From Isurus oxyrinchus (taxonomy: Eukaryota): a stretch of DNA of 64,000 nt. Within the stretch, counting starts at the first letter, position 1; each line of letters opens with the position of its first letter. Position numbers and translations under genes: made by a program. The DNA lies in NCBI GenBank assembly GCA_026770705.1, contig JANJGN010000036.1, forward strand, positions 2,356,001 through 2,420,000, written 5' to 3'. This document shows positions 4,784-57,209 of this stretch, piece by piece. The notes below the pieces were generated by a model that ran no database searches, had not been told where the DNA came from, and saw nothing but the letters and a program-made list of their open reading frames with translations.

Positions 4784-4899
4784 TGATTTCGAGTCCAAGA
4801 AAGAGTTGAAATATAAGCTGGTTTAGGGTGTGTGTGTGGGGCGGAGAGATAGGGAGAGAGATAGGTGGTTGTGTAAACAAACAAGCAGTGATAGAAGCA

Positions 4900-7472: not shown

Positions 7473-7511
7473 AGTTTTGTCGAAGGGTCATGAGGACTCG
7501 AAACGTGAACT
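7473..7511 (+). ncRNA. Hammerhead-like motif, degenerate (TTGTCGA core, GUG site)
   Basis: AGTTTTGTCGAAGGGTCATGAGGACTCGAAACGTGAACT. Confidence 0.5.
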
Positions 7512-8489
7512 CTTTTCTTCTCCGCCGATGCTGCCAGACCTGCTGAGTTTTTCCAGGTAATTCTGTTTTTGTTTTTGATTTCCAGCATCCGCAGTTTTGT
7601 TTTGTTTTTATCAACCATGTCCATTCTATTTCCAACATTGTTGCCCTCGCAGTCAAAACCTGCAGAGGGAGCACTTGTCCAGAGAGATTTCTTTTCCACT
7701 CTGTCTTGTGTTCACATCTTCTCTCGCTGTCAATAGAAGTTCTTGCAGATCTTTCCACACAATCAAATGATTCATTCCTCAGAAAGAGGGAGAGAGAGAG
7801 AGAAAATAAATTGGCTACAAAATATCAAAAGATTCAGATGAAATTTGAATCAGCAAGATTCAGCAATCTGCATAACAAGAGCCAAAGCTCCATTTGTAAT
7901 TTCCATACATAATCTCCCTGTACCTGCCAAATATCAGCAAATATCATCTCCCAATCTACATGTACGTTCATATAAACCTAATATTCCCTCAAATAAATTA
8001 TGTTCAATCACGAAATATTATTGTCCATCTCTCAACGGGCATTCATTTCAAAGGCTTCCACCATCAGTCAAACTCATTTGAATCCCTAAATATTTCTTGT
8101 CCTTCTCTCAAAGTTAATCGAAAACTCTTCTGTTACTTCGTAAACGCTTGCAATTCCCTAAATATCCTTGTGCTTCTTCCTCTCTCTACCTGCACCTGCC
8201 ATTAAAGACTCTGAGATAATTGCGTTATTCTAATTCCCTCCTCCTGCGCACCCCTTGCCTTAATTGTTCCAAGGTTACTCCCGTGCCTTTAGCTGCTTTA
8301 ACACTAAGCTCTAGAATTAGTTTCCCGAACATCTCTTCATCCCTAAATCTCTTTTTTGTTCTAAACTGTCCCTTTAATTCTGAGTTTTATCAAGTTTCCA
8401 GTCACCTGACCTTATATCAACTTGTGTAGTTCAATGTTAAGCGTTCAATAACATTCTGCAAGAAATAATGTTTTTGCAAAGCGCCTAGG

Positions 8490-10746: not shown

Positions 10747-10951
10747 AAACAAAACCAGAATTACCTGGAAAAACTCAGTAGGTCTGGCAGCATCGGCGGA
10801 GAAGAAAAGAGTTGACGTTTCGAGTCCTCATGACCCTTCGACAGAACTTGAGTGAGTCCAAGAAAGGGGTGAAATATCAGCTGGTTTAAGGTGTGTGGGG
10901 TGGGGGGAGAGAGAGTGAAGTGGAGGGGGTTTGTGTGGTTGAAGGGACAAA
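10747..10951 (-). mobile_element. Penelope-like pLTR fragment with hammerhead motif (10810-10848)
   Basis: Matches 1727-1930; flanked by the 7-bp direct repeat CAATGTG (10740-10746, 10952-10958). Confidence 0.88.
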
Positions 10952-16942: not shown

Positions 16943-18004
16943 AAACAAAAACAGAATTACCTGGAAAAACTCAGCAGGTCTGGCAGCATTGGCGGAGAAG
17001 AAAAGAGTTGACGTTTCGAGTCCTCATGACCCTTCGACAGAACTTGATTTCGAGTCCAAGAAAGAGTTGAAATATAAGCTGGTTTAAGGTGTGTGTGTGG
17101 GGGGGCGGAGAGATAGAGAGAGAGAGAGGTGGTTGTGTAGACAAACAAGCAATGATAGAAGCAAATCATCAAAAGATGTCAGCGACAATGGTACAATAGA
17201 ACACATAGGTGTTAAAGTTAAAGTTGGTGATATTATCTAAACGAATGTGCTAATTAAGAATGGATGGTAGGGCACTCAAGGTACAGCTCTAGTGGGGGTG
17301 GGGGGAGCATAAAAGATTTTAAAATATTTAAAAATAATGGAAATAGGTGGGAAAAGAAAAATCTATAAAATTTATAGGGAAAAAAAAGGGGAAAAAGGGG
17401 GAAACAGAAAGGGGGTGGGGATGGGGAAGGGAGCTCACGACCTAAAGTTGTTGAATTCAATATTCAGACCGGAAGGCTGTAAAGTGCCTAGTCGGAAGAT
17501 GAGGTGCTGTTCCTCCAGTTTGCATTGGGCTTCACTGGAACAATGCAGCAAGCCAAGGACAGACATGTGGGCAAGAGAGCAGGGTGGAGTGTTAAAATGG
17601 CAAGCGACAGGGAGGTTTGGATCATTCTTGAGGACAGACCGCAGGTGTTCTGCAAAGCGGTCACCCAGTTTACGTTTGGTCTCTCCAGTGTAGAGGAGAC
17701 CACATTGGGAGCAACGAATGCAGTAGACTAAGTTGGGGGAAATGCAAGTGAAATGCTGCTTCACTTGAAAGGAGTGTTTGGGCCATTGGATGGTGAGGAG
17801 AGAGGAAGTGAAGGGGCAGGTGTTACATCTTTTGCGTGGGCATGGGGTGGTGCCATAGGAGGAGGTTGAGGAGTAGGGGGTGATGGAGGAGTGGACCAGG
17901 GTGCCCCGGAGGGAGCGATCCCTACGGAATGCCGATAAGGGGGGTGAAGGGAAGATATGTTTGGTGGTGGCATCATGCTGGAGTTGGCGGAAATGGCGGA
18001 GGAT
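16943..18004 (-). mobile_element. 5'-truncated Penelope-like element (GIY-YIG region 17435-17764; hammerhead motif 17006-17044)
   Basis: Near-identical to 1727-2770; 9-bp direct repeat GCTGCTTTA at 16934-16942 and 18005-18013. Confidence 0.92.
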
Positions 18005-34020: not shown

Positions 34021-34728
34021 AGAGGCCTGGGATATCTTCATGTGGAGGAGATAATGTCTCATATTTGAATTATGATTAAAGGGGCAGTGGCAGAATATAT
34101 GTGACATAGGCTCAGAGACAGATCACAGTGTAGTCAATAACGGTTGTTTCAGATTGGAGGGACGTACAGAGTCATATTCCCCAGTGGATCATATTAGGGG
34201 CCCTGCTTTTTCTGTTATATAAGAATAAACTGGACCTGAGTTCAGAGGGCATCACTTCGCAGTTTGCAGATGTCTCCCAAAGTGACAATGTAGTGAACAG
34301 GAAAGAGAATAGTAGCAGACTTCAGGAGAATATGGTCAGTCTGGTGCAATGGACAGACTGATATCAGGATAATTTCAATAAGGTGATATGTGTCGTGATA
34401 CATTTTGAATATTAGACCGAAGAGGGTCAATATGAATTAAATTGTCCGATGTTAAAGTGGGTGCATAGAACAGAGAAAGCTGCAGTTTCATTTCTGTGTT
34501 GCTTTCTATCTCTTTCTATCTCAATTTTGGGCTGTAGGCCTGAAAATTTCATCCTGAAAGCTGTTAGCAATTACATTAGGGAAATTTGTCAAAAACATTT
34601 TTCCTTCAGAATTCCTGCATTGTGGAAATGTGAGTTATCTTTGCAGAAAGGGAAGATGGGGGGTTTGAATGGATATGCCGGTTTTTGGTTGATTTAACAG
34701 CAAATTCAATGATGTCCCTTTGAGATAA

Positions 34729-34859
34729 AAACAAAGAAAACTGCGGATGCTGGAAATCCAAAACAAAAACAGAACTACCCGAAAAAACTCAGCAGGTCCG
34801 GCAGCATCGGCGGAGAAGCCGGACCTGCTGAGTTTTTCCGGGTAGTTCTGTTTTTGTTT
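34729..34859. mobile_element. Miniature palindromic Penelope-derived insertion
   Basis: Two inverted pLTR 3' ends; 16-bp TSD TGTCCCTTTGAGATAA (34713-34728, 34860-34875). Empty paralogous sites at ~38260 and ~56330. Confidence 0.9.
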
Positions 34860-34937
34860 TGTCCCTTTGAGATAAGCTGGTTACAGTAAGTGCCCCAAGA
34901 CAATTAAAAGCTTCCACACTGTCTGGCTAAATACACA

Positions 34938-34993
<56 letters not shown>

Positions 34994-35089
34994 AAGGTGC
35001 AGCCAACCATTAGGAAGGCAAATGGATTGAGTGTCTTTATTGCCAAAGAATTAGAGTACATGAGCAAGGAAATGTTTCATGTGGACAAT

Positions 35090-35840
35090 TAGAGTTAGCT
35101 TTGCTCTGTATCTAACTCTGTGCTTCTCCTGCCCTGAGAATGTTTGATGGGAACATTTTACAGGGAGTTTTACCCTGAATCTAACCCCGTGCTGTACCTG
35201 TCCTAGGAGTGTTTGATGGGGACAGTGTAGAGGGAGCTTTACTCTGTATCTAACCCCATGCTGTACCTATCCTGGGAGTGTTTGATGGGGGACAGTGTAG
35301 AAGGAGCTTTACTCTGTATCTAACCCCATGCTGTACCTGTCCTGGGAGTGTTCGATAGGGACAGTGTAGAAGAAGTTTTACTCTGTATCTAAACCCGTGC
35401 TGTACCTGTCCTGGGAGTGTTTGATGGGGACAGTGTGAAAGGAGTTTTACTCTGTATCTAACCCCGTGCTGTACCTGTCCTGGGAGTGTTGGATGGGGAC
35501 AGTGTAGAGGGACATTTACTCTGTATCTAAACCCATGCTGTACCTGTCCTGGGAGTGATTGATGGGCACAGTGTAGAGGGAGCTTTACCCTGTATCTAAC
35601 CCTGTGCTGTACCTGTCCTGGGAGCGTTTGATGGGGACAGTGTAGAGGGAGCTTTTCTCTGTATCTAACCCCATGCTATACCTGACTTGGGTATGCTTGA
35701 TGACGACAGTGTAGAGGGATATCTACTCTGTATCTAACCCCGTACTGTACCTGTCCTAGGAGTGTTTGATGGGGACAGCGTAGAGGGATCGTAACTCTGA
35801 ATCTAACCCTGTACTGTACCTGTCCTGAGAGTGCTTGATT
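35090..35840 (+). repeat. 69-bp satellite block
   Basis: About 11 units. Confidence 0.92.
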
Positions 35841-37579
35841 GCAACATTCTTACCCAGCACAAAAACATTCCACAAAACAGGGCTCACAAATTGAACATGA
35901 GTTTCCTTGTTTGATTCTCCCTGGTCTGTTCTGATTTGCTGATAGATTCCAGGTGCTTATCCTCCACATGAGCAGTCATCCTAATCCCGTGTACCTGTCC
36001 TTCTCCCAAACATGGCATCCGACTCCAATAAGGCAAGTGATACAGGAACATCTCAGTGAGTGCGACAGCTGAGTCATAAGCCTGACCTGGGTATATGTGA
36101 GTGACCTGGGTTAATCCGACACTCCAGGGACTGTTTAGACAGTTTGAGTGCATTGCAGCTTTGCCAGAATGAGGCCTGGATTCCAAGGTTTAAATGGTAA
36201 AGTGAGATTGCACAATCTCGGGTTGTATTCCCTGAAATTTAGTAGCATCAGGGGTGAGTTAATCAAGTTGTCAAATCCTGAGAGGAATGAGGGGGGAGAT
36301 TAGGGGAATGTATGAGCTCTTGTCCTGAGTAACAAGCGTTGTGGAGCATCTTATCGAATCCCTTTTAATCAGACAAGTATCCTTCTGTCACTTGCTCTCT
36401 GTCTCTCTCTCACCACCTCCATCTGTATCTCTCTCACTGTCTCTTTGCCTGTTTTTCTTGTGACTAAAACTTTAAACCTCTGTACTGCTGGATCCACAGA
36501 TTGCCAACAGCAATGTATATGATATTTTATAAATGCTGCAAATCTTGTTATCTCAGTGTACAGGGCACCTAAATGTTGCAATGTTATCCTGCTAATTTTC
36601 ATCCCACTGAGTCAAAATTTCTGCGATTCTGTGACTGAGTCAGAACTTCAAATAGTTCAGTTTCACTGTTTAAAATATGCAGTCACTTTTCTGTGGTAGT
36701 TTTAGAGATTGAGTTTGGAGCTCAGAATCTGTCGGTGGAATTGAGTTTCTGCCGTCATTTTCAGGCATTCCTGTATTTTGGAAATGTGTGCGATCCATTC
36801 AGAGATAGGAAATGGTATTGATGAATAAAGTTGCAGCCTTTTTGTTCATTGCATTAGATTGTGTCTGTTGCAGTTTCACAGGAGTTTACATTTTCATGGG
36901 AAAAGAATGATTAACCAATGCCTAGAATTCAATTTCCTCAGACAACTGAAAATGCAAAAGAAAGAGAGAATATACAAACCCTGAAACAGACAGGCAACTG
37001 TATGAGGAATGTTATAATTCTCTGCATGTTTTAATGTCCTGAGCTCACGATTGAAATAAACAAGAGTTTAAATCTCACACTGTGATGCTGTGTAATTTGA
37101 GTTCTGTTTCTCCTAAAATTTGAAATCACAATCAATAATTAAAAATTCCTTGCACAGAGCAGAGGGAATTTGACTTGGTATCGAACCCATACTGTAAATG
37201 GGTTGGGAGTGTTTGATGAACAGTGTAGTCAAAACTTCACTCTGAAACATTGGAATTTAGGTTAAGGGGTGATTTGATCAAATGCTTCAAGATAATAATG
37301 GAAATGGAGAGAGTCATTAAAGACCAACTATTTCTGCTGCTTGCAGAGTCTAGCACGAAACAACATTGGATTGCAGACTATGTTTCGAATTTTAGAGCTT
37401 TTGGAGTGAAATTCAGAAACACTTTGCCACACCAGGTGGCAATCTTCTGCAAATGGCAATTGATGCAAAGTACCTGTTAATGTTAAAATGTGAGGTTGAT
37501 AGATTTTTGTTAGCCAAAGGTGTAATGAGATATAGATTTAGATCAGAGATCAGCCATGATCTCATTGAATGTCAGAAAC

Positions 37580-37930
37580 AGGGGACAGTGTAGCGGGAGA
37601 TTTACTCTGCATCTAACCTGTGCTGTACATGTCTTGGGAATGTTTGATGGTGACAGTGTAGATGGAGCTTTACTCTGCATCTAACCCCATGCTGCACCTG
37701 TCCTCGGAGTGTTAGATGGAGATAGTGTAGACGGTTCTTTACTCTCTATCTAAACCTGTGCTGTACCTGTCCTGGGAGTGTTTGATGGGGACAGGGTAGA
37801 TGGAGCTTTACTCTGTATCTAAACCTGTGCTGTACCTGTCATGTGAGTGTTTGTTGGACGCAGTGTCAATTGAGCTTTAGTCTGGATCTAACCCCGTGCT
37901 GCACCTGTCCTGGGAGTGTTTGATGGGGAC
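37580..37930 (+). repeat. 69-bp satellite block
   Basis: About 5 units. Confidence 0.88.
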
Positions 37931-37959
37931 AATTTATTAACATCTTTAATTCCAATCTT

Positions 37960-39120
37960 ACTCCGCGCTGTCCAATAATGGATGCAGAAAGAGAGAAATC
38001 TGTGGTTTCATTTCTGTGTCACTTTCTGTATCTTGAAGCTTCCATTTGGAGCTGAAATTCTGTCAGTTGATGAATGTTGTCCTGAAAATTTCACCCTGAA
38101 TAATGTGAGCCTTAGTATTGTGGAAACATGTGAAGAAAGTTGTTTGCATTCACACAGTCCTACATTGTGAAAGGTGAGTTATCTTTGAAGCAATAGGACG
38201 TCGGTCCAGGTAGTCTATGTACAAACAGGTTTTGGTTGATTAAAGAGCGAATTTTAATGATGTCCTTTCCAGGAGCCGTTTACTGTAAATGCCCCGAGAC
38301 AATGAAATGCTTCAGAGCTGTTCATAGGAAATGTCTTGAGAGAATGAAATGGGTCCTCAATATCTGATTCACTATCCAAGTCTGAAGAGACATGATGGGG
38401 CCAGAGATATTGTAAGATACAGATCATGAGATGCCAGAGAATCACAGAATTGAAGTTGTGGGGCCCTCTCCAGTTCAGAATGTCAGTTTTGATGTTTTAA
38501 TCTGTGAACCTGGGCGATTGATTCAGAAAGCAGAAGGTTCCAATCCCACACTTTGCTGTTGTGAATTTCAATTCTGAATTTTCTAAAATTGAACCTGGAA
38601 TTAATAACCTCTGGGATGGAATGATTCTCATTCTGTCTGCTGCTGCAAAGCCCGTGTGTGTGTCTCAGTGTCTCTGTTTTTATTAACGATTTAAGATAAT
38701 GGGGTAGAATGCCACAAGTTTGCTAATAGGCACAAAAAGCAGCAGCATTGTCAACATTGTAGCTGGAAGCTTCAAATTCCATATGAATGCCTTAAATGAA
38801 ATAGTGAAATAGTGAAAGATGGATTTCATTGTAGGCAAATGTGTGGCCACTCACTTAAAAAAAGATGGAACAGCTTACATTATAAATGGTGAAAATCTGC
38901 AAACAGTGAGGGTCCAAAGAGACTTTGGAGTCCCTGTCCATTTGTGTCAAGACTAAATATTTCCAATGAGAAATTAAATTTGATCTTTGAGATAAAACTG
39001 TTTTAGCAACTCACACGGCACATTACATGAATCAGCCTCTGTAACCTGCACTTCAGCACATCACAGGAAAAATGATATTTTCAAGTGTTAATGATTTCAA
39101 CCAATCATTCAATGTAAAAA
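37960..39120 (+). repeat. Duplicated module (paralog at ~56030-57210; diverged partial copy at ~34470-34930)
   Basis: Colinear sequence, e.g. GATATTGTAAGATACAGATCATGAGATGCCAGAGAATCACAGAATTGAAGTTGTGGGGCCC in both copies. Confidence 0.9.
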
Positions 39121-42100
39121 TCTCCACCGAACCCCTCGAATAGATTCCAATCTGTAACTCACAACCGGGTATCTGTTATTCTATATATAAACCAGCAAGA
39201 ACCCCTCAATTAGATTCCAGCCTGTATCTCACTCCCGGGTATCTGTTATCTGATATATAAACCAAACCAAACCCCTCGATTAGATTCCAGTCTGTAACTC
39301 ACACCCGGGCAAATGTTATTCTTTATATATTATATACATATGATTTATATATAAATCACCCTGAACCACTCAATTAAATACCAGCCTGCAACTCACTCCT
39401 GAATATCAGTTATTCTGTATAAAAGCCATCCCAAAGCCCTCGGTTAGATTCCACTCTGTATCTTACTGCCGCGTATCAGTTATCCTATATATAAAGCACC
39501 CCGAAACTCTTGATTAGTTTCCGGCCTGTAACTTACATCTGGAAATCTGTTATCCCATATATAAAGCACCCCAAAACCCTTGATTAGATTCCAGTCTGTA
39601 ACACACTGCCGGGTATCTGTTATCCTAAATATAAACCACCCCAAAAACCTTGATTAGATTCCAGTCTGTAACTCACTCCCGGGTATCTGTTATTCTATAT
39701 GTACCCCACCCCGAGCCCCTCGAATAGATTCAAGTCTGTAATTGCCTCCCTCGATTAGATACCACTCTGTAATTTACACCTGGGTATCGGTTATTTTATG
39801 TATAAACCACCATGAACACCTCGATTAGATTCCAGTCTGTACCTTAATCTCGGGAGTCTGTCATTCTATATATACGCCCCCCGAACCACTAGATTAGATT
39901 GCAGTCTGTAACTCACTCCCGGGCATCAGTTGTTCTTTATATATTATATACATATGATGTGTATATAAACCACACCGAACACCTCAATTAAATGCCAGCC
40001 TGTAACTCACTTCCGGGTATCTGTTAATCTGTAGCTGAACTATCCTGAACACCTCGAATAGATTCCGGAGTGTAACTCAGTCTCGGGTATCTGTTAATCA
40101 AAATGTAAACTAACATGAGCCCCTTGATTAGATTCCAGTCTGTTATTCTTTATATAAAGCACCCCGAACCCTTCAATTATACTCTAGCCAAAACTCACTC
40201 CCAGATAACAGTTATCCTACATATAAGCCACCCAGAGCCCCTCAATTAGATTCCATTCTATGACTCACATCTGGGCAAATGTTATTGTTTATATATTATA
40301 TACTGATGATGTATACATAAACCACCCTTAACAGCTCAATTAAATTCCAGTCTGTAGCTCACTCCCGGGTATCTGTTATTGGATATAAAAACCACTCCAA
40401 ACCCCTCAATTTGCTTCCAGCCTGTAACTCACTCCAGGATATCTGTTATCCTATATATAAACCACCCCAAACCACTCGATTATTTTGCAGTCTCTAACTC
40501 ACTCACACGTATCTGTTATTCTCTATATAAAACACCCCAGACCCCTTGATTAGATTCCAGTCTGTAACACAATCCAGTGCATCTGTTATTCTATATATAA
40601 AACAACCCGAAAATCTTGATTACATCCCGGTCTGTAACTCACTCCCAGGTATCTTTTATCCTATTTATAAGCCCCCCTGAACCCCTTGATTTGATTCCAG
40701 TCTGTAACTTACTCCGGGTATCTGTTATCCTATACATAAACCACCATGAACTCCTCGATTAGATTCTAGTCTGTACCTCACTCCCGGGTATCTGTTATTC
40801 TATATATAAACCACACTACAACCCTCGATTAGATTCCAGTCTGTAACTCCCACCAGGTGCCAGTTATCCTATATATAAACAACCACGAACACTTCAGTTA
40901 GACTTCAGTCTGTAACTCACTCCCGGGAATCTGTCATTCTCTATATAAACCACCCTGAACATCTCAATTATATTCCAAGCTGTAACTCACTCCCGGGTAT
41001 CTGTTATCACACATATAAACCACCACAATCCCCATAATTAGGTTCTGGTCTGTAACTCACTCCAGCGTGCCTGTTATCCCATATATAAACCACACCGAAC
41101 CCTTCGATTAGATTCCAGTCCATAACTCACATCCGGGTATTGGTTATTCTTTGGATAAATGACCACGAACCCTTCGATTAGATTCCAGCCTGTACCTCAC
41201 TCCCGGGAATCTGTCATTCCATATATAAGCCCCCCGAGCCAATCGATTAGATTCCAGTCTGCAACGCACTCCCGGGCAACTCTTATTCTTTATAAATTAT
41301 ATACATATGATGTTTATATAAACCACCCGGATACCTCAATTAAATTCCAGCCTGTAACTCACTCCTGGGTATCTCTTATTCTGTATAACACTATCCTGAA
41401 CAACTGGACTAGATTCCAGTCTGAAACTCAGTCCTATGTATCTGTTATTTGAAGTAAGAACAACTCCAAACCCCTCGATCAGAACCCAGTCTGCAACTCA
41501 CTCCTGGGTACCTTATTCTGTATGTAAACCACCCCAAAGCACTCGATTAGATTGCAGTCTGTAACTCACTCCCGTGTATCTGTTATTCGATAAAAAACCA
41601 CTCCAAATCCCTCGATTAGATTGCAGTCTGTAACACACTCCCGGGTACCTGTTATTCTATACATAAACCCCCTCAAACCCCTCAATTAGATTCTAGTCTG
41701 TAACTCACTGCCGAGTATCTGTTATTCTCAATATAAATCCCCGAACCCCTCAATTAGATTCCAGTCTGTAACTCACATCCAGATATCTGTTATTCTTTAT
41801 ATAAACCACCTCGAAACCCTCAATTAGATTCCAGCCTGTAACTCACACCCGGGTATCTGCTTTAAAATATATATAAACCACCACAAACGCCTTGAATAGA
41901 TTCTGGTCTGTAACTCACTCCAGGGTATCTGTTCACAATATATAAACCAACCTAATCCCATCGATTATATTCCAGTCTGTAACTCACTCCCGCCTATCTG
42001 TTATCCTGTATATAAACCACCCTGAAACTCTCAATTATATTCCAGCCTGTAACGCACTCCCGGGTATTTGTTATCATATACCTAAACCACCACAAACCTC

Positions 42101-45100
42101 TTGATTAGATTCCAGTCTGTAACTCCATCCCGGGTATCTGTTATCATTTATATCAACCACCCTAAACCCCTCGATTAGATTCTAGTCTGTAAGTCACTCC
42201 CGGTTATCTGTTATCATATATATATAAACCACCCCAAGCCCTTCGATTAGATTCTAGTCTATAACTCACTCCCGAGTGCCTATTATCCTATATATAAAAC
42301 ACTACAAACACCTCGATTAGATTCCAGTCTGTACCTCACTTCCGGTAATCTGTCATCTTTATGTAAGCCACCCCGAGCCCGTTGATTAGATTTCAGCCTG
42401 TAACACACTCGCGGGTATCTGCTTTACTAAATATAAACCACCACAAACTCCTTGATTAGATTCTGGTCTCTAACTCTCTCTCGGGTATCTGTTAACCTAT
42501 GTATAAACCACACTGTTCCCCTTGATTATATTCAAGATTGTAACTCACTCCCAGGTATCTGTTATCATATATATAAACCACTCTGAGGCCCTCGATTCGA
42601 TTCCAGTCTGTAACTCAATCCCGCGAGCCTGTTATCCTTTTTATAAACAACACCGAAGCCCTCGATTAGATTCCAGTCTGTAACTCAATCCCAGGTATCA
42701 ATTATTCCAAGTATAAATGACGACGAACCCCTCAATTAGCGTCCAGCCTGTAATTCACTCCCGGGTATTTGTTATCCTATATAAACTGCCCTGAACCCCA
42801 CGGTTATATTCCAGCCTGTAACTCACTCCTGGGTATCTGTTATTCGATACAAAAACCAATCTAAACCATTCAATTAGATTCTAGTCTGTAACTCACTCCC
42901 GGGAATCTGGTATTCGACAAAAACACCACTCCAAATCCCTCGATTAGATTGCATTCTGTAACACACTCCTGGGTAATTGTTATTCTGTATATAACCGCCT
43001 CCCCCCCCCCCCCCCCCCCCCCCCCAAACCCCTCAATTAGATTCCAGTCTGTAGCTCACTGCCGGGTATTTGTGATTCCAAATATAAACCACAGAACCCC
43101 ACAATTAGATTCCAGTCTGTAACTCACATCCAGATATCTGTTATTCTTTATATAAACCACTTCGAAACCCTCAATTAGATTCCAGCCTGTAACTCACTCC
43201 CGGGTATCTGCTTTAAAATATATATAAACTACCATAAACCCCTTGAATAGATTCCGGTCTGTAGCTCACTCCAGGGTATCTGTTCACCTATATATAAACC
43301 AATCTGATCCCCTCGATTATATTCCAGCCTGTAACTCACTCCCGTGTATCTGTTATCATATACGTAAACCACCACAAACCTCTAGATTAGATTCCGGTCT
43401 GTAACTCCATCCCGGGTATCTGTTATCATATATATATAAACCACCCTAAACCCCTCGATTAGATTCTAGTCTGTAAGTCACTCCCGGTTATCTGTTATCC
43501 TATATATATATACCAGTACGAGCCTCTCGATTAGATTCCAGTCTGTAACTCACTCCCAGGTGCCTATTATCCTCCATATAAAACATTACAAACACGTCGA
43601 TTAGATTCCAGTCTGTACCCCACTTCCAGGAATCTGTCATCCATATATAAGCCACCCCGAGCACCATGATTAGATTTCAGCCTGTAACCCACTCGCGGGT
43701 ATCTGCTTTACTATATATAAACCACCACAAACTCCTTGATTAGACTCTGGTCTCTAACTCACTCCCAGGTATCTGTTAACCTATATATAAACCACACTGA
43801 TCCCCTCGATTATATTCAAGACTGTAACTCACTCCCAGGTATCTGTTATCCTATATATAAACCACCCCGAGCCCCTCGATTCGATTCCAGTCTGTAACTC
43901 ACTCCCAGGTATCGATAATTCCAAGTATAAACGATGACAAACCCCTCAATTAGCGTCCAGCCTGTAATTCACTCCCGGGTATTTGTTATCCTATATATAA
44001 ACCGCCCTGAACCCCATGATTAAATTCCAGCCTGTAACTCACTCCCAGTATCTGTTATCATATGTATAAACCACTACAAAACCCAATATTAGATTCTGGT
44101 CAGTAACTCCCTCCTGGGTGCCTGTTATCCTGGACATAAACCACACTGATCCACTCAATTAGATTCCAGTCTGTACCTCACTCCTGGGAATCTGTCATTC
44201 CATATATGAGCCCCCCGAACCCCTCGATTAGATTCCAGTCTGTAACTCACTCCCTGGTATCTGTGGTTCGACATTTAAACCCCCAAACCCCTCGATTAGA
44301 TTCCACTCTATAACTCACTGCCGAGTATCTGTGATTCTAAATATAAACTCCCAAAGCCCTCAATTAGTTTCCAGTCTGTTACTCAAATCCAGATATCTGT
44401 TATTCTTTATATAAAACACCCCAAACCCCTCAATTGGATTCCAACCTGTATCTCACTCCCGGGTACTGTTATCCCCCATATAAACCAAACCAAACCCCTC
44501 GATTAGACTCCAGTCTGTAACTCACACCCGGGCAACTGTTAATCTTTATATATTATATACATATGATTTATATATAAACCACCCTGAACCACTCAGTTAA
44601 ACACCAGCCTGAAACTCACTACCGGATATCTGTTATCCTATATATAAACCACCCCAAAACATTTGATTGGATTCCGGTCTGTAACTCACTCCCGCGTTAT
44701 CTGTTATCCCATATATAAACCACCACAGACCCCTCGATTAGATTCCAGTCTGTACCTCACCCTTGGAAGTCTGTCATTCTATATATAAGCCCCCCCGAGC
44801 CACTTGATTAGATTGCACTCTATAACTCACTCCCGGGAATCTATTATTCTTTATATATTGTATACATTTGATGTATATATAAACCACACAGAACACCTCA
44901 ATTAAATTCCATCCTGTAAATCACTCCCGGGTATCTGTTAATCTGTAGCTAAACTATCCTGAACACCTCGAATAGAAACCGGTCTGTAACTCACACCTGG
45001 GTATCTGTTATCCTATATATAAACTACCCCAAACACACAATTAGATTCCAGTCTGTAACTCACTCCCAGGTATCTGTTATTCTATATATAAAACAACTCG

Positions 45101-48100
45101 AACCTCTTGATTACGTCCCGGTCTGTAACTCACTCCCAGGTATCTGTTATCCTATATATAAGCCCCCTGAATCCCTCGAATTGATTCCAGTCTGTAAATC
45201 ACTCCCGGGTGCCTGTTTTCCTATAAAAATCCCACCACGAATATTTCAATTAGATTCCCATCTGTACCTCACTCCCGGGTATCTGTTATCCGAAGTATAA
45301 ACCACCCCGAAACCCTTGATTAGATTCCAGTCTGTAACTCAGTCCCAGGTTTCTGTTAATCTGTATAAAAACTATCCTGAACACCTGGATGAGATTCCAG
45401 TCTGTAACTCACTCCCGGGTATCTGTTATTCTATATTTAAACCACCCTGAAGCCTTCGATTAGATTCCAGACTGTAATTCACTCCCGGGTATCTGTTATT
45501 CGATAAAAAAAACACTCTAAACCCCTCAATTTGATTCCAGGCTGTAACTCACTCCTGGGTGCCTGTTATCCTAAATATAAACCACCCCGAAACCCTTGAT
45601 TAGATTCCAGTCTGTAACTCAGTCCAGGGTATCTGTTATCCTATATATAAACCACCACGAACACCTCGATTAGAGTCCAGTCTGTACCTCTCTCCCGGGT
45701 ATCTCTTATTCTACATATAAAACAAACCGAACCTCTTGATTGCATCCCGGTCTGTAACTCACTCCCGGGTATCTGTTATCGTATATATAAGCCCTCTGAA
45801 TCCCTCGAACTGATTCCAGTCTGTAACTCACTCCCGGGTGCCTGTTATCCTAAATATAAACCACCCCGAAACCCTTGATTAGATTCCAGTCTGTAACTCA
45901 GTCCCGGGTCTCTGTTAATCTGTATAAAAACTTTTCTGAACACCTGGACGAAATTCCAGTCTGTAACTCACTCCTGGGTATCTGTTATTCGATATAAAAA
46001 CCACTCTAAACCCCTTGATTTGATTCCAGTCTGTAGCTCACTCCTGGATATCTGTTATCCTATATATAAACCACCCCAAACACACAATTAGATTCCAGTC
46101 TTCAACTCACTCCCGGGTATCTGTTAATCTGTATATAAACTATCCTGAACACCTGGACGAGAATCCAGTCTATAACTCACTGCAGGGTATCTCTTATGCT
46201 ATATATAAAACAACCCGAACCTCTTGATTACATCCTGGTCTGTTACTCACTCCTGGGTATCTGTTATCCTATATATAAGCCCTCTGAACCCCTCGAATTG
46301 ATTCCAGTCTGTAACTCACTCCCGGGTATCTGTTATCCTATATTTAAACCACACGGCACCCTTTGATTAGATTCCAGTCTGTAACTCACACCCGGGTATC
46401 CATTATTCTTTGTATAAACGACCATGAACCCCTCAATTAGATTCCAGTCTGTACCTCACTCTGTGGAATATGTCATTCCATATATAAGACCCCAGAGACA
46501 CTCGATTAGATTCCAGTCTGTAACTCACTCCCGGGCAACTGTTAATCTTCATATATTATATGATGTGTATATAAACATATATACATATAGATGTATATGA
46601 TGCATATAAACATATATATGTATATAACTCACTCCAGGGTATCTGTTAATCTTTATATAATCTATCCTGAACAACTGGAATAGATTCAAGTCTGTAACTC
46701 ACTCCCGCATATCTGTAATTCTATATATAAACCACGCCAAACCCCTTGATAAGATTGCAGTCTGTAACTCACTCCTGGGTATCTGTTATTCTATATATAA
46801 ACCCCCCCCCCCCCACCCCAAAACCCCTTGATTAGATTCCAGTCTGTAACTCACTTCCAGGCATCTGTTTTACTATGAATAAATCACCACAAACCCCTTG
46901 ATTAGATTCCAGTCTGTAACTCACTGCCGGGTATCTGTGATCCAAAATATAAACCACAGAACCCCTGTATTAGATTCAATTTCGTAACTCACATTCAGAT
47001 ATCTGTTATTCTATATATAAACCACCTCGAAACCCTCAAATATATTCCTGCCTGTAATTCACTCCCAGGTATCTGTTATCCTGTATTTAAATCATCCTGA
47101 ACCCCTTGATTAGATTCCAGCCTGTAACTCATTTCCGGGTCTCTGTTTTACTATGTATAAACCACCACAAACTCCTTGATTAGATTCCATTCTGTAACTC
47201 AGTCCAGGGTATCTGTTAACCTATATACAGAACCACCCTGATCCCCTCGATTAGGTTGCAGTCTGTAACTCTCAGGTATTCTATGTTTAAATTACCATGA
47301 ACCCCTCCATTGGATTCCAGCCTGTACCTCACTCCCACGTACCTCTTATCCTATACATAAGCTACCCTGAATCCCTCGATTAGATTCCAGGCTGTAATTC
47401 ACTCTCGGGTATTTGTTATCTTATATATAAATCACCCTGAACCCCTCAATTAGATTCCAGCCTGTAATCCACTCCCGGGTATCTGTTATTCTATATATAA
47501 TCCACCACAAACCCCTTGATTAGATTCCTTTCTGTAACTCAGTCCCGGGTATCTGTTAACTGATATATAAACCACCCTGATCCCCTCAATTAGATTCAAG
47601 TCTGTAACTCATTCCCTGGTATCCGTTATTCTAAATATAACCACCTCAAACCCCTTGATTAGATTCTGGTCTGTAACTCACTCCCGGGTATCGGTTATTC
47701 TATATATAAACCAGTCCGAACCCTTCTATTAGATTCTAGTCTGTAACTCACTCTTGGGTATCTGTTATTCTATATATCAACCCCCGCACCCCTCGATTAG
47801 ATTCCAGTTTAAAATCACTCCCTGGTATCGGTTATTCTATATATAAGCCCACCGAGCCACTTGATTAGATTCCAGTCTGTATCTCACTCCCAGGTGTCTG
47901 CTATCCTAAATATAACCTGCCCCGAACCCCTCGATTAGATTCTATGCGGTAATTCACTCCTGGGTATCTGTTATTCTATATAAAAACCATTCCAAACCAT
48001 TCGATTAGATTCCAGTCTGTAACTCACTCCCTCGTATCTGTTATTCTATACATTAACCACCCCAAACCCCTCAATTAGATTCCAGTCTGTAACTCACTCC

Positions 48101-49366
48101 CGGGTATCTGTTATCCTATATATAAAACACAACAATCCTCTTGATTACACTCTGGTCTGCAACTCACTCCCTGCTTTCTGTTATCCTATATATAAATCAC
48201 CCAGAACCCCTTGAATAGATTCCGGTCTGTAACCCTGGGTATCGGATATTCTATGTATAAACAACCATGAACCCCTCCATTAGATTCCAGCCTCTAACTA
48301 ACTCCCGGGTATCTGTAATTCGATATATAAGCCACCCCAAAACCCTCCATTAGATTCCAGTCTATAACTCACTCCCAGCTAACTGTTCTTGCATATATAA
48401 AACACACCAAACTCCTCGATTAGATTCCAGTCTGTAACTTTCACCTAGACATCTGTTATTCTGTATATTTGATGTACATATGATTCACATATAAACCACC
48501 CCGAAACCCTCTATTAGATTCCGGTCTGTAACTCACTCCCGGGTATTGGTTATTCTATATATAAACCACTCCGAACCCCTTGATTAGATTCCAGTTTGTA
48601 ACTCACTACCAGGCATCTGTTATTCTTTATATATTATATACATATGATGTAAATATAAACCACCTTGAATACATCAATTAAATTCCAGCCTGTAACTCAA
48701 TCTAGGGTATCTGTTAATCTGTATATAAACTATTCTGAACACCTGGACTAGATGCCGGTCTGTAACTCACTCCTGGGTATCTATTATTCTATATATAAAT
48801 CACCCCGAACCCCTTGATTAGATTCCAGTCTGTAACTCACTCCTGGGTATCTGTTATTCTATATATAAACCACCCCGAAGCCCTCGATTAGATTCTAGTC
48901 TGTAACTCACTCCTGGGTATTTGTTATTCTATATATAAACCACACCGAAGCCCTCGATTAGATTCTAGTCTGTAACTTAATCCTGGGTATCTGTTATTCG
49001 ATACAAAAACCACTCCAAGCCCTTTGATTAGCTTCCAATTTGTAACTCACTCCTGGGTATCTGTTATCTTATATATAAAACTTCCCAAACCATTCAATTA
49101 GATTGTAGTCTGTAACTCACTTACGTGTTTCTGTTATTCTTTATATAAACTATCCCTAACTCCTCAATTTGATTCCAGTCTGTAACGCACTCCCGGGTAT
49201 CTGTTATCCTATATATAAACCACCCCGAACCCCTTTGTGGAAGAATAAAATACATCTACAGGACAACTAAATGTTAAACGGTTAAAATCATAGTGGAATA
49301 CTACAGCACAGTTCCCTATTTTTTTCTCGCAGGCACAGGAAAGGAGGAAAGGAGTATCATAAACAA

Positions 49367-49601
49367 ACTAAAAACAAAAAACTACAGATGCTGGAAATCC
49401 AGAACAAAAACAGAATTACCTGGAAAAACTCAGCAGGTCTGGCAGCATTGACGGAGTAGAAAATAGTTGGCGTTTTGAGTCCTCATGACCCTTCAACAGA
49501 CTCTGTTGAAGGGTCATGAGGACTCAAAACGTCAACTCTTTTCTTCTCCGCCGATGCTGCCAGACCTGCTGAGTTTTTCCAGGTAATTCTGGTTTTGTTT
49601 T
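49367..49601. mobile_element. Palindromic Penelope-derived insertion
   Basis: Inverted pLTR arms folding at ~49500; 13-bp TSD GTATCATAAACAA (49354-49366, 49602-49614). Confidence 0.9.
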
Positions 49602-49752
49602 GTATCATAAACAAGCTGCCTGGAATCCTTGATGCAAGGGTGGGATGTCTGCCCCAACACAAAGGGACAGGATCAAGCAATTGTCATTTGTGCTTTAACA
49701 TTTTCACCCCCTAGCACTATAGATAAGGTCAAGCAGGGTTATCTATTCTCTG

Positions 49753-49957
49753 CAACAAAAACAGAATTACCTGGAAAAACTCAGCAGGTCTGGCAGCATC
49801 GGCGGAGAAGAAAAGAGTTGACGTTTCGAGTCCTCATGACCCTTCGACAGAACTTGCTGAGCTCCTGCTGTGTTTTTCCAGGTAATTCTGTTTTTGTTTT
49901 GGATTTCCAGCATCCGCAGTTTTTTTTTTTTTTTGTTTTTTTTTGTTTTTTTTGTTT
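49753..49957. mobile_element. Inverted-arm Penelope-derived insertion (hammerhead motif 49816-49854, minus)
   Basis: 14-bp TSD TTATCTATTCTCTG (49739-49752, 49958-49971). Confidence 0.9.
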
Positions 49958-52900
49958 TTATCTATTCTCTGTCTCACTTCTTATCGCCAGATGGGCTCCT
50001 CCTAAGATCCTGGGTAGTCGTATGCTAGAATAGATCAATTGTATACTGCATGCCGTAAACAACGATTCTCAATGTAATTACTTATTGAAGGTTAGATGGT
50101 TTTATCACATTCAGGCTCTTGGATATGTACAACGTTTACTATAACTATGTGTGCACTCTGATGCTTCTTCAGAGTGTCAGCTAGCTCCACTGTAAGCTGC
50201 TGGGCTGTCCGTGATATCACGGTTTTAATAAAAGGCTTCCGAGACAAATCTCCTGGGTCTGAGTGTTCACTCTGATTTCCACGACACCCTTGATTAGATG
50301 CCGGTCTGTAGCTCACTCTCCGGCATCTGTTATCCTATATAGAAGCCTCCTTCAACCCCTCGATTGGATTCCAGCCTGTACCTCAAACCCGGGTATCTGT
50401 TATCCTATATATAAAACACGATGATCCCCTTGATTACACTCTGGTCTGTAACTCACTCCCTGCTTTCTGTTATCCTATATATAAACCACCCAGAACCCCT
50501 TGAATAGATTCCGGCCTGTAACTCTGGGTATCGGATATTCTATATATAAACAACCATGAACCCCTCCATTAGATTCCAGCCTCTAACTAACCCCCGGGTA
50601 TCTGTAATTTGATATATAAGCCACCCCGAAACCCTCCATTACATTCCAGTCTATAACTCAATACCGGGCATCTGTTATTCTTTGTATATTATATACATAT
50701 GATGTATATATAAACCACCTTGAATACATTAATTAAATTCCAGCCTGTAACTCACTCCAGGGCATCTGCTAATCTGTATATAAACTATTCTAAACACCTG
50801 GTCTAGATACCAGTCTGTAACTCACTCCTGGGTATCTGTTATTCTATATATAAATCACCCCGAAGCCCTCGATTAGATTCTAGTTTATAACTTAATCACG
50901 GGTATCTGTTATTCTATATATAAACCACCCCGAACCCCTTGTTTAGAGTCCAGTCTGTAACTCACTCCTGGGTATCTGTTATTCTTTAGATAAACTATCC
51001 CAAACTCCTCAATTTGATTCCAATCTGTAACTCACTCCCGGCTATCTGTTATCCTATATATAAACCCCCCCCGATCCCCTTGATTAGATGCCAGTCTGTA
51101 GCTCACTCTCGGGCATCTATTATCCTATATATAATTGTCATTCAACCCCTCGATCAGATTCCAGTCTGTACCTCAATCCTGGGTACTGTTATCCTATATA
51201 TAAACCACCCCAAAACCCTCCGTTAGATTCCAGTCTATAACTCACTACCAGGGTACTGTTATTGCATATATAAAGCACACCAAACTCCTCGGTTACATTC
51301 CAGCCTGAAACTAACTCACAGGTGTCTGTTATACTATATATAAACCAACAGGAACCCCTTGATTACATTCCAGTCTGTAACTCACTCCCGGCTATCTGTT
51401 ATCCTATATATAAGCCACGCTGAAACCCTCGATTAGATTCCAGTCTGTAAATCACCCCCGGGTATCTGTTATCCTATATATAAACCACACCGAGCCCCTC
51501 AATTAGATTCCAGTCTGTACCTCAATCCCGGGTGCCTGTTATCCTATTCTTAAACCACCACGAATGCCTCGATTAGATTCCAGTCTGTAACTCACTCCTG
51601 GGCAACTGTTATTCTTTATATATTGTATACACATAATGTTTATATAAACCACCATGAACACCTCAATTAAATTACAGCCTGTAACTCACTCCCAGATCCC
51701 TGTTAATCTGCATATAAACCATCCTGAACACCTCGACTAGAATCCAGTCTGTAACTCACTCCCGGGTATCTGTTATTCGATATAAAAACCACTTCAATCC
51801 CCTCGATTAGATTGCAGTCTGTAACTCACTCCCGGGTATCTGTTACCCTACATGATTAGATTGCAGTCTGTAACTCACTCCCTCGTATCTGTTATTCTAT
51901 ACATAAACCATCACGAACCCCTCACTTAGATTCCAGGCCGTAACTCACTCCTGGGTATCTGTTATCCTATATATAAACCACCCAGAAACCCTTGAATAGG
52001 GTCTGGTCTGTAACTCTGGGTATCGGATATTCTATGTATAAACAACGATGAACCCTTCCATTAGATTCCAACCTCTAACTCACTCCCGGGCATCTGTTAT
52101 CGTATATATAAACCACCACAAACCCTTTGATTAGATACCAGTCTGTCACCCCCTCCTGGATATCTGTTATTATATATATATATATAAACTACCCTGAAAC
52201 CCTCGATTAGGTTCCAATCTGTTCCTCACTCACGGATATCTGTTATTCTATAAATAAAACACCCCTAACACCTCGATTAGATTCCAGCTCTTCCACATCA
52301 CATGTTGAGGAAGAGGTCTCCCTCCATTTTAATGATGGGAAGGGATCTCCCTCTAATTTTAAAGATGGGGAAGGATCTCCCTCCATTTTAAAGAAGGGGA
52401 CAGATCTCGCTCCAATTTAAAGATCGTGAAGTGATATGTCGCACAATATTGTTTTTTATACTCAATGTTTACAGCTTTTTGAACATTTTCAGTTTTCCCC
52501 TGCACTGTCTCTTTCTCTCACCCCGTCTCGTTCATTCACTCTCCTGCCCCAACAGTCTGTCACTCTCACCACGTCTCTCTGTTTCTCACTCTCACCCCAT
52601 CTCTTTACCCGACACTCGACCCCCTCTCTTCATCTCTCTCTTTCACCCCATCCCTTTCTTTTGCTCGCACTGCTCTCTCTACCTCACTCGCTCACCCCAT
52701 CTCTCTCTCTCTGTCTCCCTCATCCTGTCTCTCCACCGCTATGTCCCTCCACCTCTCGTTCCATCTATCTCTCTCTCCCTCTCACTCCTTACCTCCGTTG
52801 CTCTGTTGCTCGTCCTGTCCCCCCATCTCTCTCCTGCTCGCCTTGTCTCTCTGTCGCTCTCTTTCTATCTCTGTCCCTCTCTCGTCCCATCTATCTCTCC

Positions 52901-53009
52901 TACTCTCTCACTCTCTCTCTCTCTCTCTCTCTATCTGTCTCCCAGCTGAAGCTGAATGGAAAATATTTTTAGGGTCCCGGGAAAAGGCAGACGACTGAGT
53001 TCAGTGATA

Positions 53010-53605
53010 CTTGGATACAAAATTGGTGGAGGGAGAGGAAACAGAGATTAATGGTTCATGAGTATTTTTCAGGCTGGAAGAACGTTTGTAGTGGAGTTCC
53101 CCAGGGGTCAGTATTGGGATATTTGATTTTCCTGATGTACATCAATGATTTAGATCTTGGTGTGCAGGGGACCAGTTCAGAGTTTATGGACGGCACAAAA
53201 CTTGGGAGAATTGTAAACATTGATGCGGACAGTGTAGAGCTTCAAAAGGACATTGACAAGTTGGTAGAGTGAGCAGATAGTTGGCCAATGATGTTCAATG
53301 TGGAGAAGTGCGAGGTGATGCATTATGGTAGGAGGAACATGACAGACAAAATAAAATTAGGGGTGAAATTTTGAAGGGGGTGCAGGAGCAGAAAGACCTG
53401 GGTGTATGTGTGCATTGATCATTGAAGATGGCAGGAGAGGGTGAGAGAGTGGTTCATAAAGCATATCGTATCCTGGAATTTATTAATAGGGGCATAGAGA
53501 ACAAGTGCAGGGAGGTTATGCTGAATTTATATAAGACACGAGTTAGACCTCAGCTGGAGTATTGTGTACGGTCCTAGGAGCCACACTATAGGAAGGATGT
53601 GATTC
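53010..53605 (+). mobile_element. CR1-like LINE reverse-transcriptase fragment
   Basis: SGVPQGSVLG..F.MYINDLD..GTKLG and RPQLEYCV motifs, with stops. Confidence 0.88.
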
Positions 53606-54380
53606 CTGGGGCAGTGTGATTACGTGGGATGCAATTGAATTTTACACCCCTTCTGTGTTTGATATTGGAATCATCTTCATTTAGGGTGTGCTGTGTTTTC
53701 GAGACATTTTTAGATCTTTTTAAATAATTCCCTTTTTGGATAGATTGCATCAGGTTCAGCATGAATTGGAGCTTTGCGTCCATTTTTAAAATTGTTTCAG
53801 AATGATTTTAACTTTTGTCCCTTGTTCCAGTCTCTCCCAGAAGGGGAAACATCCTCTCTGTCAAGTCCCCTCAGGATTTTATATGCTTCACTAAGAGCAC
53901 CTCTCCTAATTCTAAACTCCAATGGATACAGGCCCAGCCTGACCAACCTTTCCTCATTAGAAAATCAGAATTCTTTCCACATAAGATCAGAGATGATGAG
54001 AAATGCCTCACACAGTTGGCCTCGTCCTTGTCATCATTGGTTTCTGAGCAACAATCTGTTTCTGTTCTGACTGCCCTCGACCAGGCCTCTGTTTCTATTA
54101 CACTGGACCCTGGCTCAGTTATTACTGCACTAGACAATCTCTCAGTCGATAAAACATGCTGCAATGTCTCTGCGAATGCTACACTTCACCCGCTCTCTGT
54201 TTGGACTGTGCGGGACCATTTCTCTGTTTATCACACAATAGGCCTTGTCTTCACTTGGTATCTAATCCCATGCTGCCCTTTCCAGATCAGCCAGGATCTT
54301 ATTGAATAGCAGAAGAGGGTTGAAGGGTTAATTGGCCTCCTTCTCTTTCCATGCGCTATGACCAATACTCTTTATTCACT

Positions 54381-54626
54381 GATAAAAACAAAAAAATTGT
54401 GGATGCTCGAAATTCAAAACAAAAACAGAATTATCTGGAAAAACTCAGCAGGTCTGGCAGCATCGGCGGAGAAGAAAAGAGTTGACGTTTCGAGTCCTCA
54501 TGACCCTTCGACAGAACTTGATTTCGAGTCCAATTTCAACTCTTTCTTGGACTCGAACTCAAGTTCTGTTGAAGGGTCATGAGGACTCGAAAAATCAACT
54601 CTTTTCTTCTCCGCCAATGCTGCCAG
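54381..54626. mobile_element. Palindromic Penelope-derived insertion (hammerhead motifs 54480-54518 minus, 54562-54600 plus)
   Basis: 14-bp TSD ACTCTTTATTCACT (54367-54380, 54627-54640). Confidence 0.9.
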
Positions 54627-57209
54627 ACTCTTTATTCACTCTCTGGCTCTCAGTCACTCACTCGGTCTGAGAGTCTCTATTTTGCATTCACTTGATATGT
54701 GGCTTCTCTCCCTGCCTCTCTTTCTCTGAGAATCTAGTCTACAAACACCAGTCAGCCATTTTAGGTTTGTTCACAGTGGTCATTTTATGTTCCCACAGCA
54801 CTGGGACGTTAATGACAGAGTGACCCCTCACTCATATAAGATTAATATTTTAGATGTGGCAGAGAGACAGCTATGGAGACTTAAATTCACTGGCATATTG
54901 AAAGATCTGGGTATTCAGTCCCACATGTTGCTGTTGTGAATTTGAATCCTGAATTATCTAAAATTGAATCTGGAATTAAAAACCTCCGGGATGGAATGAT
55001 TCACATTCTGTCTGCTGCTGAAAAGCCCATGTGTATGTCTCAGTTTCTCTGTTTTTATAATGGTCTAAGATAACTAGATAGAATGCCACAAGTTGCCATA
55101 AATCAACTCAGTCATAAATGTCCCAGTGCTATGACCAATATCATTCTTTCACCATCTGCCTCTTCATCCTCTTTCGCTCTGTGTCTCTCTCTTTAACATT
55201 CCCTCGTTCTGTGTCTTCTCTTTCCCCTCTCTCTCTCTCTCAGACTATGTAAGAAAAATCCACAAACATCAGGCAGCCATTTTAGGTTTGTTCACAATGG
55301 CCATTTTATGTTCCTACAGCCCTGAGACATTTATGATAGAGTTGACTCCTCACGAATGTGACATTAGTACTTTCGTTGTGACAAAGACACAGCTATGGAG
55401 ACACTGAGACACCGATCAAACACTCATCCCTGAAACACCGCATTGTCCACGGGTTACAGGTCATTAACACTCGCTGATTTAAAAAGGTGCTCACTGCATC
55501 CCAACCTTCATCCCTTTCCCAAATCCTTCAACCTGTATCTCCCCCGTCATCCTTGAACCACATTTGTTGAATTTGAGTTTGTATTGAACCCCATAGTGTA
55601 ATTGGGTTAGGAGTGTTTGATGAACAGTGTAGTCAAAGCTTCACTCTGGAGCACTGGAATTGAGGTTAAGGGATGATTTGATCAAACGCTTCAAGATAAT
55701 AATGGAAATGAAGAGGGTGGATAACAGTGGTAAAGTTGGAGAAGGGACCTCCCTCTATTTTAAAGATGGGGAAAGGATATGTCACAGGATAATGTTTTTT
55801 ATACCGAGGCATGTAGAAAAATATTTAGAGCTTTAGCCTTTTCTCCAGCTGATGAACTTTTAATTGAACACTGTTTTTAATTTGTACTCTAATTCAAAAG
55901 AGAATGATGTTTTTTAATCTCATAACTCCAAGTGTTGAGGGAGCTTTACTCTGTATCTAACCCCATGCTGTACCTGTCCTGGGAGTGTTTGAACTGGACT
56001 GTGTAGAGGGAGATATACTCTGTATCTAAACCCACGCTGTCCAATATCAGATGCAGAAACAGATAAATCGGAGGTTTCATTTCTGTGTCACTTTCTGTAT
56101 CTTGAAGCTTCCAATTGGAGATGTAAATATGTCAGCTGATGAATTTTGTCTTGAAAATTTCATCCTGAATAGTGTGAGCCTTAGTATTGTGGAAACGTGT
56201 GAAGAGAGTGTTTGCATTTACACAGTCCTACATGGTGAAATGTGAGTTATCTTTGAAGCAATAGGATGTAGGTCCAAGGAATCTGAATGGACTATCAGGT
56301 TTTGGTTGATTAAAGAATGAATTTTAATGATGTCCTTTGCAGGAGCCGTTTACTGTAAATGCCCCGAGATAGTGAAATGCTTCAGAAGCTGTTCCCAGGA
56401 AATTTTCCTGAGAAAATAATGGTTTCCCAATGTCTGGATAACTTTCCAATTCTTCAGACACATGAAGGGGGCAGAGATATTGTAAGATACAGATCATGAG
56501 ATGCCAGAGAATCACAGAATTGAAGTTGTGGGGCCCTCTCCTGTTTCAGAATGTCAGTTTTGATGTTTTAGTCTGTGAACCTGGGCAAATGATTCAGAAA
56601 GCAGAAGGTTCCAATCCCGCTCTTTGCTGTTGTGAATTTGAATTCTGAATTTTCTAAAATTGAATCTGGAATTAAAAACCTCCGGGATGGAATGATTCTC
56701 ATTTTGTCTGCTGCTGCAAAGCCCGTGTGTGTGTCTCAGTTTCTCTGTTTTTATTTATGATTTAAGATAATGGGATAGAATGCCACAAGTTTACTAAAGG
56801 GCACAAAAATAGGCAGCAATGGCAGCATTGTAGCTGGAAGCTTCAAATTCCACAGAGATATGAACGCCTTAAGTGATTGGGTGAAATAGTGAAAGATGGA
56901 TTTGATTGTAGGTAAATGTGTGGCCGCTCACTTTAAAAAGGACGGAACAGTTACATTATAAATGATGAAAGGCTGGAAATAGTGGGGATCTAGAGAGACT
57001 TGAGAGCCCCTGTCCATTTGTGTCATGACAAAGGAAACTTCAAACCATTACAATGAGAAATTAAATGTGAACAATGGGGTAAAGCTGGTTAACAACTCAC
57101 ACTACGCATTCCATGAATCAGCCTCTGTAACCTGCACTTCAGCACATCACAAGAAAAATGATATTTTCAATGGTTCGTGATTTGAATCAATCATTCTGTG
57201 TTAAAACCC

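Follow-up and report, generated by a model that had tools for sequence, protein, structure and literature searches.

Inverted insertions of a Penelope-like retrotransposon in Isurus oxyrinchus carry footprints suggestive of two-ended priming

The two-armed insertions of one endonuclease-bearing (EN+) Penelope-like element (PLE) in the shark Isurus oxyrinchus probably arose in single events, in which nicks in the two target strands, 14 nt from each other within a mirror-image site, would leave two 3′ overhangs that both prime the same RNA, from two fixed start sites. This reading rests on head-to-head arms, one tail per insertion, a modal TSD of 14 bp, an RRN-[14]-NYY target, rare variants shared between the arms, and matched arm lengths. 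The inverted arm, the one-sided tail, and the TSD are already published; the quantitative footprints are the addition. The wider proposal, that two-ended priming is the normal route of this family, with a homodimer on one RNA, a symmetric 14-nt cut at that target, one start site per subunit, and one-arm copies as failed or trimmed versions, stands at about even chances. If true, the tail at one end only, the pLTR inversion, and the TSD length of Penelope-like elements would share a single mechanism, distinct from LINE TPRT, and hairpins would have been scattered through the genome as by-products in their tens of thousands.

The window, that is, the whole 64,000-nt stretch analyzed, covers positions 2356001–2420000 of contig JANJGN010000036.1 (C36) in a genome of 4.98 Gb. 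It contains immunoglobulin V-set and C1-set exons, and a cluster paralogous to it lies ~1.15 Mb off on the same contig. A preliminary description had placed seven insertions with TSDs in the window, and all of them were found there (Table 1). Four of the seven (at 1727, 10747, 16943, and 54381) have empty paralogous sites on the same contig, and their TSDs of 14, 7, 9, and 14 bp, respectively, were confirmed because the duplicated sequence occurs only once at these sites. The 34.7-kb hairpin and the two at 49 kb occur in the paralogous cluster as well, with their flanks included, indicating that those duplicates result from segmental duplication. The 5.9-kb copy proved to be compound, as its tail-less arm lacks ~350 nt internally and continues into an upstream pLTR copy (4644–4899); each arm has sequence absent from the other.

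Table 1. Positions in the window of the seven insertions and of features within the 5.9-kb copy
Feature	Position	Strand	Remarks
Left TSD of the 5.9-kb two-arm insertion, 14 bp	1713..1726	+	Single copy at empty paralog L179
Tail-less arm of the 5.9-kb copy: 3′ pLTR, internally deleted ORF, 5′ region, upstream pLTR copy (4644-4899)	1727..4899	-	
Tailed arm of the 5.9-kb copy, 5′-truncated	4900..7610	+	
RT, CX4CxxC linker, and GIY-YIG endonuclease in one open frame	5316..7082	+	RVT_1 9e-6, GIY-YIG 6e-4, both below Pfam cut-off
TATA-like word, ~33 nt upstream of the 5′-end hotspot; putative promoter element	7440..7447	+	
Hammerhead-like motif, found by eye, core non-canonical; arm 5′ ends cluster at its 5′ edge (hotspot)	7473..7511	+	
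T-tract, end point of tail-less arms; putative RT start site 1	7561..7576	+	
Tail; its end is putative RT start site 2	7577..7610	+	Sample arm ends; PMC11167929 (accessible part)
Right TSD of the 5.9-kb insertion, 14 bp	7611..7624	+	
One-arm tail-less insertion	10747..10951	-	TSD 7 bp, 10740-10746/10952-10958
One-arm tail-less insertion	16943..18004	-	TSD 9 bp, 16934-16942/18005-18013
131-bp hairpin, 34729-34859	34713..34875	.	TSD 16 bp, 34713-34728/34860-34875
235-bp hairpin, 49367-49601	49354..49614	.	TSD 13 bp, 49354-49366/49602-49614; both arms end at the hotspot
205-bp hairpin, 49753-49957	49739..49971	.	TSD 14 bp, 49739-49752/49958-49971; tailed arm short, T runs expanded
246-bp hairpin, 54381-54626	54367..54640	.	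TSD 14 bp, 54367-54380/54627-54640; second arm stops early, at GCCAG

The insertions were counted in a sample of 153 sequences (1,577,328 bases, 1.58 Mb), which consisted of the window, 20 random 10-kb stretches, three neighbours of the window, and stretches around pattern matches in contig C1 (first 14 Mb). This sampling favours two-arm copies, each of which had two chances of being matched. Arm ends were taken from BLAST ends and are accurate to a few bases. The 155 clusters comprised 89 two-arm, 57 one-arm, and 9 complex ones; after four one-arm fragments of <60 bp and the complex clusters were left out, 89 two-arm and 53 one-arm insertions were counted. On inspection, four of the nine complex clusters proved to be two-arm. 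The 89 two-arm insertions form a continuous size range of 101–5,886 bp, with 46 of ≤330 bp.

The arms belong to one family of EN+ PLE with a Neptune/Nematis-type linker. A 25-base word near the 3′ end of the element occurs 117,459 times in the genome, indicating at least 117,459 end copies. A single ORF of 917–918 aa was found in three loci; the full 918-aa ORF matched the RVT_1 (2e-6) and GIY-YIG (9e-4) profiles, both just below the Pfam cut-offs, and the DKG motif and two Cys within the GIY-YIG core are visible in it. As in EN+ Penelope-like elements, a PLE-type RT and, at the C terminus, a GIY-YIG share this single ORF, and tandem or partial-tandem pLTRs, inverted copies, and a tail of 30–40 nt are present. 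Upstream of GIY-YIG, the RT-EN linker carries CX4CxxC. The CX2-5CxxC linker motif marks Neptune/Nematis and is missing in Penelope/Poseidon (PMC8557442; this and the other papers are cited from the accessible parts of their text), so by this mark the element falls with the former and not with the latter. A type I hammerhead would be expected in the pLTR, where a hammerhead-like layout with a non-canonical core can be read by eye; an Rfam search gave no hammerhead match and only generic miRNA-hairpin matches under the cut-off. A 5′-UTR intron across both start sites, suggested by a donor-like word before the tract and an acceptor-like word before the ATG, was rejected as its joint was absent from three presumed-RNA contig sets, although such contigs cannot prove absence.

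The ends of the arms follow a nearly strict rule. Exactly one arm was tailed in 88 of the 89 two-arm insertions; none had two tails and one (L115) had none. Within the 88, 82 combined the tail with an end at the tract, and six combined it with an earlier end. The one-arm copies comprise 23 tailed and 30 tail-less ones, so that about half of the two-arm insertions would have one tail if each arm chose its end independently (p = 4e-26). A held-out set of 36 loci gave 22 two-arm calls, one of them a duplicate of the main sample, and the remaining 21 all obeyed the rule. So did three of the four two-arm copies among the complex clusters, the exception being L111; the tailless L115 and L111 count against two-ended priming. 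The preliminary description had already noted, for the window, one tailed arm per two-arm copy with the other arm stopping at the T-tract, or at GCCAG in the 54.4-kb copy, and its expectation of fixed rather than random end points was borne out by the 82/89 with tail and tract. The spacing of ~30–35 nt given there needs correction, as the end points lie 35–40 nt apart (tract ends at reference positions 2671–2678 and tail ends at 2709–2714).

TSD length depended on the number of arms, as had been proposed: a TSD of 12–16 bp was present in 80 of 89 two-arm but only 20 of 53 one-arm insertions (p = 9e-11). The accompanying statement that one-arm copies have TSDs of only 7–9 bp holds for both copies in the window but fails for these 20; the other 33 one-arm TSDs were shorter or not found. 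Pairing flanks from different insertions yielded a 12–16-bp repeat by chance in 2 of 150 cases. Two-arm TSDs (n = 89) had a mode of 14 bp, with 14 bp in 36, 15 in 24, 13 in 10, and 16 in 6. When a fixed duplication of 14 nt was simulated, it was called as 14 in 61/120 and as 15 in 28/120, owing to chance matches to the element ends. The simulation came close to the observed shape except for TSDs of 12–13 bp, which were found in 14/89, beyond what it accounts for; thus the stagger or the trimming is not wholly fixed. Three one-arm copies with a long TSD bear stubs of 6–14 nt resembling a second arm.

The target motif around the TSD is a mirror image, RRN-[14]-NYY. In the set of 36 14-bp TSDs, the third and second bases preceding the TSD were purines in 100% and 75%, and the second and third bases following it were pyrimidines in 83% and 97%, respectively, with an overall agreement of 128/144 positions. 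These positions were flat in the simulation (0.41–0.59), and 15 held-out sites showed the same motif. This geometry of motif and TSD indicates 3′ overhangs, each able to prime. In one-arm copies with a TSD of 6–11 bp, pyrimidines were found 16–17 nt from the primed nick in 26/32 positions (p = 6e-4), so the far motif remains at an unchanged distance, the outcome foretold by the same cut followed by trimming of the unprimed overhang.

The two arms of an insertion resemble each other in length and in sequence. Arm lengths were correlated (rho 0.86), with 40 short-short, 44 long-long, and 5 mixed pairs (n = 89). Rare variants common to both arms numbered 51 per 26,020 bp, compared with 53 per 507,827 bp in random pairs, a ~19-fold excess, and in 27 of 28 long overlaps the partner arm was closer than the median copy. 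One outer TSD, the tail rule, and these shared variants support the earlier suggestion of a single event with both cut strands primed. Of the 89 arm-arm junctions, 32 showed microhomology, 14 were blunt, and 43 were filled.

Forty of 134 arm 5′ ends fell within 12 bases at the 5′ edge of the hammerhead-like motif. The density at this hotspot was 3.3 ends per base; it was 1.4 immediately downstream and 0.13–0.4 in most of the bins nearby. Genome-wide, 3,515 hairpins have both arms exact up to the hotspot, with junctions within 30 nt of it. Because the TATA-like word lies ~33 nt upstream, the hotspot may reflect run-off at the RNA 5′ end and would then be a transcription start; the cap test gave no support. 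In this test, CC at the hotspot was counted 206 times genome-wide against 921 for GG, so a cap-templated C lacked support and was rejected, the comparison also being confounded by one-step variants.

In the proposed mechanism, a dimer would make the staggered cut, with the end of the tail as the start for one subunit and the T-tract, 35–40 nt upstream, for the other. The two cDNAs would then be joined end to end through repair or a template jump. Priming would shield both overhangs and thereby allow duplication of all 14 nt; an overhang left unprimed in a one-arm event may often be trimmed, leaving a shorter TSD. The hairpins of 200–250 bp could result from priming on the 5′ pLTR, with both cDNAs ending by run-off at the RNA 5′ end, ~100 and ~140 nt farther on. 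Since one stretch of RNA would be copied twice, the model requires strand displacement, which counts against it.

The same symmetric cut and two-ended priming might have used a separate RNA at each end, usually from the same source locus, a variant that we consider unlikely. A common source would suffice for the shared variants, and the arms differ at two rare positions in L173 and at one in L168, as either two templates or later mutation would give; these differences count against one RNA. However, separate RNAs would need an extra asymmetry to leave one tail per insertion in 88/89, and away from the hotspot the arm 5′ ends were ≤6 nt apart in 8/35 insertions (one of the eight, L096, being an alignment artefact), with 0.4 expected. 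A single RNA is favoured only tentatively over two from one source. Quite improbable as a general route is single priming followed by fold-back of the cDNA or antisense template, which then self-primes, with the endonuclease resolving the product and stripping one tail, as the accessible parts of PMC3846280 and PMC8557442 may be read. Fold-back accounts for palindromic junctions and near-equal 5′ ends (26/89 within 5 nt), and identical arms would be expected from it. But in 43 of 89 insertions the longer arm was the tail-less one (by >50 nt in 26), against 20 in which it was the tailed one; fold-back copying of a tailed cDNA cannot yield an arm longer than its template, nor can a tail arise by copying a tail-less cDNA. 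The private sequence in each arm of the 5.9-kb copy, the 30/53 one-arm copies in which the tail-less end is the primed end, and the same target motif at both edges also argue against it. Fold-back, which the preliminary description had offered beside two-strand priming, is thus disfavoured as a general route and may make a minority of symmetric junctions.

That the hairpins, which had been called MITE-like, are non-autonomous elements amplifying as units appears very improbable. Like MITEs (PMC8969392, accessible part), they are short, with inverted arms, a TSD, and many copies; about half (46/89) are ≤330 bp, the 3,515 hairpins join ≤30 nt from one site, and certain junctions are found more than once. 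Unlike MITEs, they are reverse-transcribed; instead of symmetric terminal inverted repeats to which a DNA transposase binds, they have ends that are unequal in 88/89 and match the retroelement 3′ end, and a junction census of the 89 together with one genome-wide count gave no evidence for unit amplification. Their sizes form a continuous series, and the duplicates of the 34.7-kb hairpin carry the same flanks. A check of junction recurrence, proposed earlier, showed mostly unique junctions: only two types were repeated among the 89, both at the hotspot and none off it. The 54.4-kb junction, the one counted genome-wide, occurred twice, in the window and in its segmental paralog. Accordingly, the hairpins appear to be by-products and not an amplifying family. 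Scarcely credible, finally, are two independent insertions, the second into the first, or later gene conversion evening out the arms. Adjacent inverted arms can undergo gene conversion; yet C>T/G>A made up 153/339 of the unshared changes and 15/51 of the shared ones, which speaks against conversion. The element can cut within its own pLTR (PMC11167929, accessible part), but a single TSD encloses both arms and, together with the tail rule, refutes nested insertion as the general case. Moreover, neighbours within 500 bp among the first 100 matches to the 25-base end word were head-to-head in 13 cases and tail-to-tail in 1.

Two-ended priming can be set against reports on related elements. Pen2a_Av has an inverted pLTR, an optional 31-bp tail, and a TSD of 9–10 bp, and self-priming was proposed for it (PMC3846280). 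Resolution by the endonuclease was given as the reason why the tail is often at one end only, and a variable second nick as the cause of TSD length (PMC8557442). Complex EN+ PLE insertions in the accessible parts of both papers resemble those of the shark family in having an inverted 5′-truncated copy, a one-end tail of 30–40 bp, a TSD, and partial tandems that give pLTRs; however, the TSDs reported there are 8–10 bp, whereas the shark family peaks at 14, with a mirror-image motif and one tail nearly as a rule. How tandem and inverted PLE structures form was named an open question in PMC8557442. The Poseidon protein of Anolis carolinensis, a predicted dimer, cuts and extends both strands in vitro from two start sites bounding the tail, and the word it prefers, ATT-like, resembles the NYY half-site of the shark family (PMC11167929). 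Poseidon belongs to another clade, and the shark family differs in having both start sites upstream of the ORF start. The accessible part of that paper is silent on TSDs, on a stagger, and on inverted insertions, and the start site did not differ between strands, which counts against one site per strand. The in vitro system already in use there (PMC11167929) could directly test the numbers supplied by the footprints: a stagger of 14 nt, a target of mirror-image form, a single start site for each strand, and one RNA per insertion. Further background is found in the accessible parts of PMC9977147, PMC2377424, and bioRxiv 10.64898/2026.07.22.740005. In the freely accessible literature, mostly judged without full text and with subscription papers and supplements outside it, no paper was found that ties PLE inverted repeats to priming at both ends, to a stagger of fixed length, or to a target of mirror-image form.

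A comparable case is L1 twin priming (Ostertag and Kazazian 2001), in which both target ends reportedly prime one RNA to give a head-to-head inversion within one TSD, the second primer being said to use a variable internal site and to leave non-overlapping arms. In contrast, the arms of the shark family overlap, the second site is fixed 35–40 nt from the first, and the inversion is a main outcome.

General A-to-I editing of the template was considered and rejected: the 34.7-kb hairpin, with three rare A>G changes common to both arms, and one other locus share 3–4 A>G in both arms, yet A>G was not enriched among the shared rare variants (2/51). Assembled contigs could not inform on transcription or editing of the 49-kb hairpins, as most map to the repeat and none spans a hairpin. 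The hairpins are a large potential source of double-stranded RNA, and siRNAs from Penelope inverted repeats have been reported in Drosophila (PMC3681739, accessible part).

The layout in which one arm carries the full 3' tail and the other ends at the T-tract was also present in an older hairpin in another sampled genome stretch (L029:2204-2376), which was 75-82% identical. This copy hints that the tail-plus-tract rule is older than the present subfamily. At L125:1498-1936, 194 bp of non-element sequence was caught between the arms of a two-arm insertion, and at least four tandem units with a period of ~3,325 bp were observed in the same genome (G000:C1:12156566-12166626, L250). On the element sense strand, A>G clusters were seen at window 34729-34859 and in L164/L165, L156, and L166. 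Such clusters, which were rare and in two hairpins occurred in both arms, may represent edited templates.

In the copy at L024:1579-1667, a donor-like splice word lay right before the T-tract, and an acceptor-like word lay right before the ORF start. A putative intron between these words would enclose both inferred RT start sites. Its spliced joint was not found in the contigs, which cannot show absence. A hammerhead-like motif was located at window 7473-7511, with a non-canonical core in the young subfamily; in the older copy L005, the core was canonical when read by eye.

A second copy of the immunoglobulin exon cluster was located ~1.15 Mb from the window. The paralog flank identity was about 87-92% near window 1.7-18 kb and 97-100% near 34-54 kb. 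Parts of this duplication could be dated from shared versus empty insertion sites.

Other repeats and immunoglobulin exons in the window
Feature	Window positions	Orientation
~69-bp tandem repeat, dispersed	9996-10280, 29520-29985, 33279-33610, 35068-35846, 37621-37914	both
Immunoglobulin C1-set and V-set exons	61133-61729 and 63196-63612	- strand
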